26,020 nt of DNA, from contig OMQW01000052.1 in NCBI GenBank assembly GCA_900313345.1, positions 1 through 26,020 of the forward strand, written 5' to 3'. The stretch comes from an uncultured Eubacteriales bacterium. GTDB taxonomy: Bacteria; Bacillota_I; Bacilli_A; RF39; UBA660. The stretch's first letter is position 1; each line of letters opens with the position of its first letter. Position numbers and translations under genes: made by a program. Under the pieces are notes generated by a model, which saw only the letters and a list, made by a program, of their open reading frames with translations, had not been told where the DNA came from and made no database searches. This document shows, one piece after another, positions 11,873-24,920 of the stretch.

Positions 11873-14800
11873 ATGGAAAAGTTAAATGAAATTTTAAAGA
11901 AAATAATTACTAGATATACTATAAAAGAGAATAAAAATAATAAGATTACTAAGGAAGAAAATGATGAAAATAGACGAAAAAAAATAATTGCTATTATAGT
12001 ACTTATTTTATTACTTTTCTTTTTATTAATATTTAATGTTGGTGATATACTTGTTGGAAGACCAACTAGACCAGTATTAAATAAACCAGGAAATGACTGG
12101 TATAACGAAAAAGTAATAGGTATTGAAAAAGATTCTATCGCTAAAAAGAAAATAGATCATTATTTATATTGTATTACTGATAAAAATAGTATTGATGGAT
12201 GTAAATGGGAAATTACTAAAACAAAGAATGTTAATGTTATAACTAATGGCATTAACTATGTATTCTTTAAGGCAGTAGATTCAGATGGTAACATTGGTGA
12301 TCCATCTAGCCCTGTTGTTGTTAAGATTGATAATATAGCACCTACTATTAACAGTATTATAAGAGAAAACTTGAAGAATAGTATTAAGGTTAGCGTTGAT
12401 GCTATTGATAATGAATCTGGTATTAAAGCTTATTACTATAAATTAGATGATGGTGAATGGGTTAAAGGGGACAAGGATTTTGAATTTAAAAATCTAGAAG
12501 AAAATAAAGAATATAATATTTCTATTAGAGTCGTTGATAATGCAGGGAATATTAAGGAACTATCTTTAACTGCTACTACTGATAATTCTGGAAAGACTAC
12601 ATTTGATTTAGATGATAATAAAAATAATAAAGCTAAAGCAGATGATAAGGATAAAACTAAAGATAATGAAACTAAGGAAGAACCAGATTTAACAATTCCT
12701 TCAGTTAGTTTAGATGGAATACCAAATGAGTTTTATTATGGAGAAGATTATAAAATACCTACTAATTATAAATTTGGTAAGAGTGGTGGAAAACTTACTT
12801 GTTATATAGATTCTAAAGAAACTAACTTAACTTCTACAAAAACACTTTTATTATTAAAACATACAATTAAGTGTGATGCTAAAGGTAATAATGGATTAAT
12901 TGCAAGTGCTTCTAAAGAAATTAATATTAAGCCTAAAGAAATAGATGAGGATAAAGAATGGGATGGATGGATTACAATGAATTTAAAATATCCTGAAAAT
13001 TCTATTAAATGGCAATGGAAACTTGATGATTCTGCTATAGAACAAGATCATAGAGAATTTGAAGATTATACTGGACCAATAACAGTTAGACTAAATGATG
13101 TAGAACATGTTCTAATTAGTTATGAAATAGATGGGGAAGGATTTAAAGAATATCCAGGAACTACAGAACCTTATACTTATATATGGGCTGATGATTATTC
13201 ATTAAATTCTACTGATAAAACTAAAGTTTATATTTCGTATTCTAGAAATAGTGATAAGAGAGAATATAAAATAAATGATGGAAAATGGCAAGAATATAAA
13301 GGAGCATTTGAAGCTTCTGCAGATAGTAATATTCAATCTAGAGCTACTAATATTGATGAAATAGTAACTGCAGATGGAACAAAAACAATTAAAAAGAGGA
13401 GTGCTTATGATTCTATATATATTAGTTATGATAAAAGGCTTACAAGAGATCCTTTAAGCATTAAAATATATTTTGATAACAATAGTATTCAATTAAATGA
13501 GGAAACTAATGCTAGACTTATTTATACAGATGGAGCTAAAAAGATTGTTTATAGTATAAATGGTGGAGTTTATACAGATTATACTGGACCATTTAAAGTA
13601 AAAGCACTAGATAATGTTACAGCAATAGTTTATAAAGATATTAATTATTATAATAGTGATGGAGAAATAGTTAATACTAAAGAACTTTCTGCAAGTGCTA
13701 GTAAAGATGTTGATGTTACTAATTATGAACTTGAAGATTTTGATTTTTCTATTAATGCACCTTATAGTTTAGAAGAAAATAAAACTAGTAAAGTATCTAT
13801 TAATGCACCAGAAGATTCTGAAAAAATATTATATTCTATTAATGGTTCTGATTATAGTGAATATGATAAAGAGTTTGAAGTTAGTGCAGATACATTAGTA
13901 ACTGCAATGGTAACTAAAAAAGTTAAACTATTAGATAATGATGGTAATACAATTGATATTATTTCTAAAACAAAGACAAAGAGTAAATATATTAAGTTAA
14001 AAGAAATAGAACCTCCAATAGAAGATGAAATTGATGGACCTAATATTTATGAAAATCCAGATAGTTTAGTAGAAGAAGCTACTATATCTATGGATACTTT
14101 TTATCCATCCGAATCAATTTGGTATAAAGAGGGATATTATGGAAGATATACTAAATATAATGGAGAATTTAAGGTATCTAATAATGAGACAATTTATGCT
14201 TATTATATTAGAAAAGAAGATGGGTTAAAATCAAAAGTTTCTAGCTTTAAAGTATCTAATATTAAAAAACCTTATTTACCTTATATAAGATTTGAATCTG
14301 ATCATGATTTAAATACTATTACTGATAATGAAAATATTACTGTTATTAGTAAAGATGCTGATACAGTTAAATATAGTTTTGATAATGTACAATTTATAGA
14401 TTATACTTCACCAATTAATATTGATCATAATTGTACTATTTATGTTAAAGCAGAGAATAATTATGGTGATACTGTTGAGAATTTGTCTATTACTAATATT
14501 GGTAATAGTAATCCTCCTGCTATTATTAAAAATCTTGATGTATTTATTACTAGTGATCCTACAAAAGAGGAAGTTAAAGGTTTAGTTAATAAAACAAATA
14601 TTTCTATATCTTTTGATAATGATGCAACTGAAAAGTTATATTCATTAGATGGATATACATTTATACCTTATGAAGGACCTTTTGAATTAAAAGAAAATAC
14701 TACTATTATTGCTGTTGCAAGGGGTGAGAATGCTTTTGGTAGTGCTAAGTTAAAAATTGATTTTTTAACTACTGGTATAGCTAAACCTGATATTATACCT

Positions 14801-17800
14801 AATACTAAACAAAAAGCTTATTCTGTTGATATTGATATTGACTATGATAAGACTGCTGTAAAAAAATACTATAAATTAAATGATGATACTTATCATGAGT
14901 ATACAGGAACATTTACTGTAACTGAAAATAATACACTTATTACAGCTTATAATGAAAATGCTTTAGGACAAAGTGCAAAGAGTACATATTACGTTTCTAA
15001 TATTGTTAAGCAACCTTCTTATGAAATGGTTGATAAAGGCGATTACTTTATTCTTAAACTTAATTATCCTGCTACAACAAATTCAAACACTTGGGAATAT
15101 AAGTGGACTAAAGATGGTAAATGGAAACATTATGATACTAAGTATAATTTATTATTAATTAAAGCTTCTGCTAAAGAAAAATATGTAAATGCAGATGGTG
15201 CTATTATTGAAGATGAATATGGTAATAAATTAACTTATACTGATCATTATTACTTTGTAAATGATGTTACTAGTGATTTAGCTGAGAATTTATTTATGAG
15301 ATGGAGTAATGAACAAATTAATGAAATAAATATTATTTCAAATACTAAACTTCCTACAAATAGCGTTGATATTAGAATTCAATTTCCTACTGGTGATAAA
15401 TATTTGTATAAAATTATTGATAAAAATGGTAAACAAACTGAGTGGAAAAAATATAATGGTGTTTTTACTATAAAAGAAAACAATACTACAGTACTTGCTA
15501 AATATTTTAAGCAAGAAACTGGCGATAGTAAAATTGTCAGTTATAAAGTTACTAATATAGATGAAACTAGTCCAGAGGTTTCAGGCATTGCTGATTTTGA
15601 GTCTCCTATTAGAAAATTAAATGTCACTATTAAAGCTGTAGATGATGTGGAAGTTGAAACTGTTGGTTATGCTAAGGGAAAACATGATGTTAAGTTCTTT
15701 GAGGATGATGGAAAATTTATTAAAAACAATGGAACATTTAGTGTAGAAGAAAATGGCTTTTATACTCTATATGCAAGTGATACTGTTGGACATCAAGTGG
15801 TTAAAGTTATCGAAATAACTAATATTGATAAAAATGCTCCTGATTTATATATTAATTTACTTGATAAGAATTTAAGTTCTAAAGTTAGATTTACAATTAC
15901 AGGTACTGCTAAAGATATATCCTATAGTGTTGGTAATGATACTAATTATAAAAAATATAATAGTGGCGATGAAATAACTTTAACTTCAGAAGAATGTGAG
16001 AAATTATTTAATTCTGATGGATCTTTAACTATTTATGCTAAGGGTATTAATGAGGCTTTAAATGAAGCTACTATTCATACTAATATTAATAATCTAGATA
16101 ATAATATTTTTGCAGCTCCAGTTATAAATAATGTTGCAGGTTACCCTATTTTAACTGAATATGGTATGAAGTTAGATGATTATATTACTATTAGTTATGA
16201 TAATAATTATGATGATTTATATAATGAATATTCTGTTGATGGTGGAGAAACATGGCTTCCTTACGTCGGACCATTTAATTCACAAAGTGGTAATATAGTT
16301 GCTAGAAGTACTAGACTTGAATCTGGTTTAAGTAAATCAAATTCTAAAAAAATAAACTTACCTACTGATGCTATTCCTTATTCTAGTTTTGATGGTGATG
16401 TAAATACTAAACAAAATTATCCTGGAACTTATAAATTTTTAGTTGATAAGACTGCTTGGAATAGTTATCTTTCAATTATAGAAACTTGTCATTATTATTC
16501 TGGTATGACTATGTATTTCTATGATGATAATAATAATTTAATAAAACAAGAAACACTTAATGTTGAATATAGTAGTTCTAATAATACTGAACATATTTAT
16601 TTAATTCCTGAAAATACAAGTTATATAACAATAGGCACTGATCATGGTTTTGGTACTAATGCCGAGGTTAATGAAATAACTCTTTCTAATGAACCTAGAT
16701 TTAATGTAAAGAAGAATTATTCTAAAATTATTAATGATGGAATTATAATTGGTAATAATGAAATATCTATTGATTTTTATAAAACTTCTGTAAAATATTT
16801 ATATAAAATTAATGATGGCAAATGGAAAAATTATACTTTAGGAAAAATTTTAAATATAAAAAATGGAGATACTTTATATGCTAAGGGAATAGATATGTTT
16901 GGTGTAGAAACTAGAATAATCTCTTCTGTTGTTTCTAATGTACCTGATGATTGTGTTCCTGCTGCTGGAACTGATAATAATTCATCTACTTATTATTATT
17001 CTGGTTATACACAATATAAACTTATAGTAGATAAATCTGCTTTTGGTAAATATATTCAAGTTGTTTATACAGATGGTAAGGGTGGATTTACATTACGTTA
17101 TTATAATTTAGACGATGAAAATTTCTATACTTACGATCATGAAAATAGTGGAGGTTCTCATGCTGCAATATCTATTATTCCTTCTGATGCTGAATATTTA
17201 AAAATTAACGGATATAGTAATTGGGGAATAGGATATATCTCTGATATTAAGATATTATCTAAGCCCGGAATTTATAATAATAATAAATATAATAGCATTT
17301 CTGATAAAGGAAATAAGATAGTTAAAAATCAAATAATTGGAATTAATTATGATAGTAAATCTATAAAGAAATTATATAGTTTCGATAATAAAACTTGGAA
17401 TGATTATACAGATAAATTTACTGCTAAGATTGGTGATACGATTTATGCAAAAGCAATAGATGCTGATGGAGTTGAAACTGAGGTTAGCTCTTATAAGGTT
17501 GCTTTATCTACTAATGCTTTAAATAATAATGCGTTAGATGGCAATGAGAAAACTTATGAATCTGTTAATGGTTCTAGATTAAATATTGATGAATCTATGT
17601 ATGGTGAGAGAATTAATTTTAAAACTAATGGTAATGATACAGTTAAGTTCTTTGATAAACAAGGTACTGAAATGACTGTTTATACTACTACTGTTACTGG
17701 TAGTGGATGGCATGAAGTTACTGTTCCTCAAGCTTCTAAATATATGACATTTACTAGTAATTATGTTTATGAAGTAAGACCTAAGTTTGAACCTACTATT

Positions 17801-24505: not shown

Positions 24506-24506
24506 T

Positions 24507-24920
24507 ATGAAAAAAATTAATTTAGATTTTATTAAAGAAAATAAGAAGACTTTATTAATCTCACTTGCTTCTATTGCATTAATTATATGTTTAGTATTTG
24601 TAGTTAAAGGACTATTCTTCAGTCATGCTGCTACAAATACTGCATCATTCTTAAAGGATCAAAAAGTAGATGGCTTATTATTTACTAGAACTACTTTTAG
24701 TGATAATACACTTAAAGTAATAGTAAAAAATACTACAGATGATGCATATAATTTAAAAACTATAGATGTTTCATTTGTAGATGGAGATAATAAAGTTATT
24801 ACAACTGTTAATGGTTATGTAGGAGATGTTATTGCAAAAGACTCTTATAAACAATTAGTTGTATCTAGTGATATTGATTTAAGTAAATCTTCATCACTTA
24901 CTTATAAAATTAATAAATAA
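24507..24920 (+). CDS. Small N-terminally membrane-anchored protein of unknown function, translationally coupled to the giant gene
   Basis: ATG 24507 lies one nt after the giant gene's TAA (24503-24505). The RBS AGGAG (24496-24500) lies inside the giant gene's last codons. It has a TM helix (LLISLASIALIICLVFVVKGLFF) followed by a ~95-aa beta-rich ectodomain (LKVIVKNTTDDAYNLKTIDVSFVDGDNKVITTVNGYVGDVIAKDSYKQLVVSS). Confidence 0.75.
   Translation: MKKINLDFIKENKKTLLISLASIALIICLVFVVKGLFFSHAATNTASFLKDQKVDGLLFTRTTFSDNTLKVIVKNTTDDAYNLKTIDVSFVDGDNKVITTVNGYVGDVIAKDSYKQLVVSSDIDLSKSSSLTYKINK

Follow-up and report, generated by a model that had tools for sequence, protein, structure and literature searches.

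A two-gene locus from an uncultured Bacilli bacterium encoding a giant protein with three ALK-type glycine-rich heads and a small partner protein: a proposed surface-adhesin operon

The window analysed here is a 26,020-nucleotide (nt) stretch of contig OMQW01000052.1 (GenBank assembly GCA_900313345.1, forward strand) from an uncultured Eubacteriales bacterium, and it contains two adjacent genes that encode a giant protein of 4,210 amino acids (aa) and a small protein of 137 aa. We infer that the two genes form an operon that makes a very long, multivalent cell-surface adhesin fibre together with a constant membrane-side partner, and we put the probability of this reading, including the function it assigns, at about 0.6.

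The distal part of the giant carries three glycine-rich heads (21-25% glycine, with GGGG(x)YYGG-type runs), each of which matches the Pfam family PF12810 (ALK_LTK_GRD; profile of 243 positions, gathering cutoff 24.5 bits) far above threshold, from profile position 6 or 7 to 242 or 243 (Table 1). Judged by these profile matches, the heads are members of a named family, the ALK/LTK glycine-rich domain (GRD). The first-pass annotation of the window had already pointed to glycine-rich heads; they do exist but are not nameless, being full-length copies of PF12810, a family that also occurs in phage fibre proteins. An AlphaFold2 (AF2) model of aa 3600-4210 has a mean predicted local distance difference test (pLDDT) score of 70, with values of about 90 for its first immunoglobulin-like (Ig) and JR modules (JR is our label for a small beta-sandwich module of the giant). 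Foldseek matched this model to ALK/LTK TG/GRD structures (among them 7n00, 7nx4, 7nx1, 7lrz and 7lir, at E 2e-6 to 4e-5) with a probability of 1.0, E-values of 2e-6 to 7e-5 and 18-22% identity, at a TMt of just 0.29-0.43, and also to many phage proteins in BFVD that are annotated as "glycine-rich domain-containing". PHROGs 5811, 7388 and 1589 match the heads as well. A phmmer search of the giant against PDB sequences found nothing, the link to ALK having come via Pfam and Foldseek, and a literature search on PF12810 / ALK_LTK_GRD found no relevant paper on bacterial members in the library searched. In cyanophage Pam3, a TNF-like plus glycine-rich domain that structurally resembles ALK (7LIR) forms the receptor-binding fibre tip (PMC9608196). 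As a separate observation, a strain of the same species (locus L001, positions 9179-9415) has a strain-specific, Cys-containing insertion of 72 aa in a loop of the third head, where it replaces GSQTALDG (window positions 23902-23922), and a 1-nt homopolymer indel follows the insertion.

The giant as a whole is laid out as an anchor, a stalk and distal cassettes. Hydropathy analysis in 19-aa windows picks out a single hydrophobic stretch among its 4,210 aa, with window starts at aa 33-46 and the peak at 38; RRKK precedes this stretch, and the protein contains 24 Cys and has a net acidic charge. Five homologues share the same N-terminal order, consisting of a charged tail of variable length, a transmembrane (TM) segment, a domain of about 85 aa with a Cys pair, an Ig module, a low-complexity linker and an Ig module of a second type. 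No LPXTG-type motif (LP.T[GAS] or NPQTN) was found anywhere in the giant, and with its sole hydrophobic segment at the N-terminus it is not a sortase-anchored adhesin. Neither a Pfam scan of the whole protein at E<=0.01 nor segment scans revealed an SLH, LysM, choline-binding or CWB2 repeat, and the whole-protein scan listed PF12810 and a sub-threshold CHB_HEX_C only. Testing for RTX adhesins of the type I secretion system (T1SS), we found no HemolysinCabind or related Pfam match in the giant and no T1SS gene set in the window, and the C-terminus is a glycine-rich domain. A prepilin leader or N_methyl motif is absent from both the giant (…RRKKIIAIIVLILLL…) and the small protein (…NKKTLLISLASIAL…).

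To count the repeated modules, a hidden Markov model (HMM) was seeded on the Ig-like modules preceding JR units and iterated on the giant itself. It detected 22 copies of a module of about 85 aa, located at aa 147-237 (one), aa 342-1497 (eleven), aa 1607-1690 (one) and in the cassettes (nine). Of these, one stalk module passes the CHB_HEX_C_1 cutoff (27.1 bits versus 22), while aa 169-230 are an OmpL47-type domain in NCBIfam (E 5.5e-25) with Pfam DUF7743 just past its cutoff. Four modules of the second type (Ig-B) bring the Ig-like modules to about 26. The giant also has eight JR modules and three cassettes of about 815 aa each, and comprises about 40 beta-rich modules. Self-BLAST and alignment gave the same order for all three cassettes, namely Ig, JR, Ig, JR, Ig, Ig-B and glycine-rich domain, and the JR copy that was modelled with AF2 is a confident small beta-sandwich (pLDDT about 90). 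The module outline first proposed for the giant, with a single N-terminal anchor behind a basic patch and with no LPXTG, SLH, LysM or choline-binding repeat, was broadly right. Two of the proposed labels are not supported: the eight modules called "discoidin" match no Pfam family and no PDB sequence, and thus not the F5_F8_type_C profile of about 150 aa, and the same eight, as "carbohydrate-binding" modules, show no match to any named carbohydrate-binding module family.

Loci related to the window (L numbers) were collected by exact look-ups and pattern scans of genomes and metagenomes. At 23 of them, whose small proteins group into 11 clusters at 95% identity, a large open reading frame (ORF) on the same strand precedes the small gene at a distance of -50 to +23 nt; these loci come from uncultured "Bacilli bacterium" metagenome-assembled genomes (MAGs; HGM and Hadza gut sets) and from human gut metagenomes. 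The large ORFs are homologous to the window giant at 27-38% identity, mostly within the N-terminal ~2,000 aa, and the complete homologues measure 1,704 to 3,295 aa, with one of at least 3,324 aa, leaving the window's 4,210 aa as the longest seen. This distribution of the giant family is based on loci reached via the small gene; searches with aa 1-900 and with cassette 3, for which the word prefilter was saturated, gave nine and three matches, respectively. Co-occurrence of the two genes had been set as a check on the first proposal, and the small gene proved to be present in every close or intermediate giant homologue examined. A local HMM built from the three heads found the glycine-rich domain in L025, L040, L042 and L043 only, always at the C-terminus, and the small gene also follows giants without this domain (L011, L012, L017, L020-L024, L026, L037 and L041), which argues against the small protein being a chaperone for the heads alone. 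Synteny is partly retained, with nifJ-giant-small in L012 and L013 and rseP-giant-small, with PFOR nearby, in L027. A search of 2.9 million viral contigs returned no relatives of the small gene. Three side observations concern individual homologues. An in-frame TAA (L023, 5187-5189) splits one giant into 1,429 and 1,595 aa, and a frameshift (L042, 2291-2334) splits another into 167 and 1,992 aa; these interruptions could be sequencing errors, decay or phase variation. In addition, the giants of L023 and L024, and likewise P0016, have a PASTA-like segment (Pfam PF03793, precomputed for P0016) in their first ~70 aa, N-terminal of the TM helix; this places it, by prediction, in the cytoplasm, whereas the domain is normally extracellular.

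Related species also differ in which ectodomain accompanies the small gene. In assemblies with two copies of the pair (L023/L024 and L039/L040), megablast-level likeness is limited to the small gene, the spacer before it and at most ~60 nt beyond it, a shared stretch of about 470-490 bp with 97-99% DNA identity; the L023 and L024 giants are 38-46% identical in protein. L041, L042 and L043, which represent one chromosomal locus in different samples, have more than 8 kb of downstream flank in common at 98%, and L041 and L043 are also 98% identical over the first ~82 codons and the upstream DNA, as is the small gene at this locus. The L041 giant (3,295 aa) is nevertheless 42-45% identical to the L043 giant (2,329 aa) and 86% identical to the giant of L039, which occupies the other locus. 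From the constant 5' end and small gene, and from the likeness of the L041 giant to that of L039 over that of L043, sequence comparison indicates that in these species the ectodomain is swapped from locus to locus and from strain to strain, with no such change in the membrane end or the small gene. The pattern at the paralogous loci suggests gene conversion or cassette exchange.

In an AF2 model based on a 10-sequence alignment, the small protein consists of a predicted helix (aa 7-37) and a seven-strand sandwich (aa 52-136) with pLDDT above 90. The protein has no Pfam, NCBIfam or PHROG match, its profile gave nothing below E 0.004 against Pfam and no match against PDB sequences, and Foldseek returned no PDB fold match below E 0.025, the best being an archaeal pilin at that value (TM-score 0.42). 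A word-indexed search yielded just 10 clusters; family size was therefore taken from an exhaustive profile search (A1), which retrieved 553 representative clusters at E<=1e-3, of which 144 scored <=1e-10 and 14 scored <=1e-30. Broader family alignments (A4 and A5) were too diverse for pattern-based locus scans. Nearly all members are full-length at 125-145 aa and none is named, and the family is undescribed in Pfam and NCBIfam. With the window protein as the seed, its traits are an N-terminal helix or a lipobox and then a domain of ~90 aa with the motifs VxN…YNLKTI…GY(I/V)G…DLS…Y.INK. The replacement of the helix by lipoboxes (LLTGC and CITGC) in two distant members supports a domain tethered at the outer face of the membrane as the probable common feature of the family.

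Distant members, at E about 1e-11 to 1e-12, occur in other genomic contexts: after a DUF87 ATPase in the ftsY-ylxM locus (L029, 4873-7040), after a DUF87 (HerA-like) and a prepilin-type protein and before ffh (L031, 4794-7423), after a protein of 585 aa that has a genuine prepilin N-terminus and weakly resembles the giant (L050, 7177-9363) and, as a 222-aa member, after cotE (L033). The prepilin motifs upstream of distant members read MKKGFTLIELL and KKGFTLVELL. The first-pass claim of a coupled partner holds in part, in that the small gene follows every close and intermediate giant homologue examined, but the small family, with at least 553 clusters, is not exclusive to giants. Two other relationships were tried and discarded. 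The small protein is not a free copy of a module of the giant (hhalign probabilities of 8% versus JR and 1% versus Ig, and no second match to its profile in the window), and the window ORF at 1740-2537, which likewise follows cotE, is no counterpart of the 222-aa member in L033, since BLASTP shows no similarity.

Both genes of the pair are intact, and the positions of their features are given in Table 1. The ATG of the small gene lies one nt past the TAA of the giant, as first described, and its Shine-Dalgarno-like GGAG falls within the final codons of the giant, 7 nt upstream of that ATG; the giant itself has a Shine-Dalgarno-like AGAGGTG 5' of its ATG. The GC content of the window is ~25% throughout. 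At the base composition of the giant gene, stops are expected in 9.5% of codons, so that 4,210 open codons have a P of ~1e-183; of the two other frames, one contains 267 stops and the other 984, and the GC content is 40% at the first codon position, 35% at the second and 8% at the third. An identical small protein occurs on 18 public contigs, and the giant ORF is co-linear with independent assemblies at three loci, namely L002 (NCBI GCA_020624725.1) and L003, with 99.8% identity over the last 5.4 and 4.1 kb, and L001, with 99.4% over 9.2 kb. In L001 the giant is called in three pieces, owing to a 1-nt homopolymer indel in an assembly in which lon and other genes are also broken, and these frameshifts are consistent with error-prone assembly. 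The three cassettes are mutually 35-55% identical in protein and share a single 160-bp DNA repeat at 79%, which makes repeat collapse unlikely. We conclude that the giant ORF is real and intact and no chimera.

Table 1. Positions of the gene pair, its signals and the predicted modules of the giant in the window.
Feature	Position	Strand	Basis
Sigma-70-like promoter TTGATA-17-(TG)TATAAT	11815..11843	+	11/12 matches, extended -10; consensus match only
Giant ORF	11873..24505	+	ATG start, 4,210 aa, ORF listing
aa 1-60: charged cytoplasmic tail ending RRKK and the protein's only hydrophobic segment (predicted signal anchor, N-in)	11873..12052	+	Hydropathy; five homologues with same layout
aa 61-146: membrane-proximal domain, conserved Cys pair	12053..12310	+	Alignment; no Pfam or PHROG match
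aa 147-237: OmpL47-type / DUF7743 / Big_13-like Ig module	12311..12583	+	NF047446 E 5.5e-25; DUF7743 28.5 bits, cutoff 27
aa 238-271: D/K-rich low-complexity linker	12584..12685	+	Homologues have N/K/E/T-rich linkers in same place
aa 272-355: first Ig-B (second Ig-like module type), recurring before each glycine-rich domain	12686..12937	+	Matches 2230-2273, 3040-3120, 3854-3939
aa 342-1497: stalk, eleven detected ~85-aa Ig-like modules and two module-sized gaps	12896..16363	+	Iterated HMM
aa 1495-1797: JR module (small beta-sandwich), Ig-like module, JR module	16355..17263	+	Self-comparison, HMM
Cassette 1, aa 1798-2607: (Ig + JR) x2, Ig, Ig-B, glycine-rich domain	17264..19693	+	
Glycine-rich domain 1, aa 2330-2602	18860..19678	+	PF12810 E 1.1e-48, 166.8 bits, profile 6-242 of 243
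Cassette 2, aa 2608-3422	19694..22138	+	
Glycine-rich domain 2, aa 3150-3418	21320..22126	+	PF12810 E 2.5e-52, 178.7 bits, profile 7-243 of 243
Cassette 3, aa 3423-4210	22139..24502	+	AF2 model of aa 3600-4210
Glycine-rich domain 3, aa 3960-4208, C-terminal	23750..24496	+	PF12810 E 1.8e-36, 126.8 bits; Foldseek ALK/LTK matches
Small ORF	24507..24920	+	ATG start, 137 aa; N-terminal helix and 7-strand beta-sandwich
Intrinsic terminator-like hairpin, 13 bp, with T-run	24926..24955	+	

The pair is bracketed by a promoter-like site and a terminator-like hairpin, as the first-pass annotation had it. The promoter-like site has the top score in a consensus scan of positions 11600-25200; it stays a consensus match and not proof, because promoter-like sites are not enriched as a class in this region (97 found versus 105 expected). 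The flanking core genes named at the outset were also found, with a 1,142-aa ORF upstream (nifJ) that is 66-70% identical to ORFs with the PFOR domain set and the N-terminus of lon beginning at ~25844 downstream of the pair. Other core genes of the window are a miaB-like C-terminus, ylbF/ymcA, cotE, rpsP, cdsA and a gene for an rseP-type M50 protease, among which lie three ORFs that have no Pfam match, at 1740-2537 (265 aa), 3205-5379 (724 aa) and 25023-25700 (225 aa); the last is conserved in L001. No mobility genes were found in the window, as had been noted, and neither were tRNAs or Rfam families above threshold. The host is a Firmicute of gut and spore-former type with ~25% GC, whose relatives are deposited as "Bacilli bacterium" MAGs. 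Among 12 plus-strand ORFs examined, eight end in TAA, four in TAG and none in TGA; an alternative genetic code with TGA as a sense codon was rejected, since table 11 already yields intact, full-length ORFs, and the missing TGA stops look like an effect of extreme AT bias rather than of a recoded stop.

Two further features lie beyond the small gene. Within the AT-rich spacer, positions 24965-25106 contain three G+C-rich hairpins, with fold z-scores of -4.4 on the minus and -3.9 on the plus strand and no Rfam family above threshold. The minus strand has a promoter-like site (25106..25078, TTGACA-17-TAAGAT), after which come the hairpins and then a terminator-like hairpin with a U-run (24988..24972); this arrangement makes a putative small RNA of ~110 nt, convergent with the giant operon, possible. 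In L001, which represents a strain of the same species that is 99.4% identical to the window, an element of ~1.2 kb with rve/HTH_21 transposase genes (10433-11652) sits exactly inside the terminator hairpin of the operon; its insertion point corresponds to window positions ~24929-24939, and 11 nt of the window are present on either side.

In the mechanism that we propose for the pair, the hydrophobic segment of the giant would act as an uncleaved Sec signal anchor with the N-terminus inside and the C-terminus outside, and the proximal domain, Ig module and charged linker would span the wall zone. The stalk, of about 14 modules, would hold the cassettes roughly 100 nm or more away from the cell; with about 37 beta-sandwich modules counted and 3.5-4 nm assumed for each, the projection would be on the order of 100 nm. 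The ligand-binding sites would be the three glycine-rich heads together with the JR modules beside them, given the role of this domain in ALK/LTK and in phage fibre tips, and the fibre would then be an adhesin, multivalent or multi-specific, that recognises ligands on host or microbial surfaces. The two internal heads may point sideways from the fibre, given that in Pam3 gp24 both ends of the glycine-rich domain lie within the TNF-like base (PMC9608196) and the same is expected here. Translational coupling would provide roughly matched amounts of the 137-aa protein and the giant. The small protein would reside on the membrane's outer face and bind or help to install the anchor-proximal part of the giant, which it most likely contacts because it is constant and membrane-tethered while the ectodomains vary.

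Several observations weigh against this proposal. A possible signal-peptidase site, SHA|AT, follows the helix of the small protein (after aa 41), so that the protein could be released; the original description of it as TM-anchored is thus right about the predicted helix, which makes tethering likely, and less secure on account of this site. For both proteins, topology and non-cleavage were judged by eye and from hydropathy alone, and a physical interaction between them was deduced from gene order alone. Distant members of the small family occur without giants, so the role of the family is not giant-specific. On the side of the giant, residues ~490-600 of the AF2 model, which correspond to the second, glycine-rich half of the domain, have a pLDDT below 50, and the eight JR modules (~95-118 aa) have no assigned family, as their Pfam matches are to unrelated families at E 0.019 or worse and a search of PDB sequences gave nothing below E 0.5. 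Finally, there is only a weak 4-bp hairpin 3' of nifJ, and read-through from nifJ into the giant operon may occur.

Other explanations of the locus were weighed against the same data. A reading of the ORF as a chimeric assembly, a pseudogene in decay or the tail-fibre gene of a prophage is hardly credible: it would account for the three-piece gene in L001, the in-frame stop in L023 and the frameshift in L042, and the glycine-rich domain is common in phage proteins, but the window ORF is uninterrupted and agrees with L002 and L003, the breaks in L001 go back to a 1-nt homopolymer indel in an assembly in which lon and other genes are broken too, and the divergence of the cassettes (35-55% identity, one 160-bp repeat at 79%) makes repeat collapse unlikely. 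A prophage origin is further opposed by the core-gene flanks, by the nifJ-giant-small synteny in L012 and L013 and by the absence of small-gene relatives from the 2.9 million viral contigs. Very improbable, too, is a small protein that acts as a dedicated folding chaperone for the glycine-rich heads, similar to Pam3 gp25 or Tfa, and is released after assembly. Pam3 gp24 does need an adjacent-encoded chaperone, whose beta-sandwich domain grips both the TNF-like domain and the glycine-rich one (PMC9608196), and the small gene of the window lies directly 3' of the third head. However, most giants with a small gene have no glycine-rich domain, which largely refutes this idea, and the small family is membrane-tethered by a helix or lipobox, has no Pfam or PHROG match and lacks a helical trimerisation domain as described for gp25.

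We also consider it unlikely that the giant is a structural envelope component, such as a sheath, an S-layer-like coat, a filament cell spacer or a spore-surface fibre, rather than a ligand-binding adhesin. The cassette model matches the multi-Ig stem/base of Aureispira GhpA (9fly_A, E 5e-7) and, more weakly, the Sap S-layer of B. anthracis (9g93_A, E 2e-4), yet the TM-scores to 9fly and 9g93 are just 0.09-0.13 and point to generic Ig arrays; sporulation genes are nearby, with cotE in the window and Spo0A and Coat_F in L011, yet the promoter belongs to the vegetative, sigma-70 class. Scans of the giant detected no SLH, CWB2 or other wall-binding module, and replacement of whole ectodomains together with three diverged heads of a receptor-binding type fits recognition better than a lattice. 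Doubtful to a similar degree is the view that the small gene is a mere neighbour or a recombination landmark whose function is unrelated to the giant. Distant family members located after DUF87 ATPase, pilin-like or cotE genes would agree with it, and a near-identical small gene at paralogous loci could serve as a homology arm for gene conversion. On the other hand, 11 clusters preserve the adjacency (-50 to +23 nt) even where identity falls to about 37-40% and the chromosomal surroundings differ, a Shine-Dalgarno sequence within the last codons of the giant, or overlapping frames, points to coupled translation, and in L031 and L050, where there is no giant, an extracellular protein with a helix anchor and a prepilin-type N-terminus is still encoded upstream.

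An adhesin operon of the kind that we favour would be of interest for several reasons. Giant adhesins shape the attachment of gut bacteria to mucus, host cells and other microbes, and almost nothing is known about the surface structures of uncultured low-GC Bacilli. In this defined and intact locus, a single proposed bacterial fibre uses the ALK-type domain three times, which links an animal receptor domain, phage receptor-binding tips and a bacterial surface protein. It also brings forward an unnamed and fairly large family of small proteins, genetically locked to fibres, as a candidate display component, and ectodomain swapping beside a constant partner suggests strong selection at the surface by phage, immunity or niche specificity. 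Much more tentatively, the constant 5' end (from the cytoplasmic tail to the TM helix) and the near-invariant small gene might frame a cassette-exchange system in which the whole ectodomain is swapped between two chromosomal loci and between strains. The small protein would then serve all helix-anchored surface proteins of this group of uncultured gut Bacilli (giants here and pilin-like proteins in distant relatives) as a dock in the outer leaflet or as an assembly factor. We regard this wider idea as possible rather than likely; if it were true, such a factor would add a new accessory component to the means by which monoderm bacteria display surface fibres. The locus by itself overturns no current view.

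When compared with known systems, the heads are like the TG region of ALK/LTK in having three full-length PF12810 matches and fold matches, at 18-22% identity, to human, invertebrate and LTK structures. They differ in that the animal proteins contain one copy in the ectodomain of a receptor tyrosine kinase that binds ALKAL cytokines, whereas the giant has three copies in tandem cassettes and no kinase. Phage fibre tips (cyanophage Pam3 gp24/gp25 and S16 gp38-type polyglycine adhesins) share the same type of domain, located at a fibre's distal end, where it serves receptor recognition in phage (PMC9608196), and Pam3 also encodes a small beta-sandwich protein directly downstream. Unlike phage fibres, the giant lies in a core chromosomal context and its small gene has no viral-contig relatives; unlike gp25, the small protein is membrane-tethered, accompanies giants without a glycine-rich domain and has no evident trimerisation helix. 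The pair does not group with gp24/gp25- or Tfa-type systems either, as the small gene also follows giants without the glycine-rich domain and has no PHROG or Pfam match.

With giant Ig-repeat fibres (the RTX adhesins SiiE, LapA and MpIBP; staphylococcal Ebh/Embp; Aureispira GhpA; Flavobacterium SprB), the giant shares an anchor, an Ig stalk, a distal binding region and a length of thousands of residues. RTX adhesins and GhpA/SprB depend on a T1SS or a type IX secretion system (T9SS) and outer-membrane anchoring, Ebh has a C-terminal TM segment and others have LPXTG signals. The giant differs from them in coming from a monoderm-type organism and in having a predicted N-terminal signal anchor, and no RTX, T9SS C-terminal domain or LPXTG signal was seen. 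GhpA, a protein of 5,898 aa with 52 Ig-like repeats (bioRxiv 10.1101/2024.01.29.577165), is the top PDB fold match of the aa 3600-4210 model (9fly_A, E 5e-7), at a TM-score of about 0.1 that reflects a generic multi-Ig likeness. The Ig modules resemble those of the chitobiase/hexosaminidase C-terminal-like and OmpL47/Big_13 types, with one module passing CHB_HEX_C_1, the anchor-proximal one belonging to NF047446/DUF7743 and the others related via the iterated HMM; in contrast to CHB_HEX_C/OmpL47 proteins, most of the 22 copies are below any Pfam cutoff alone and no enzyme domain is attached. None of these characterised systems matches the combination found here, in line with what the first-pass annotation had stated, and we consider the gene pair probably to represent an adhesin system of an uncharacterised but not fundamentally new kind.

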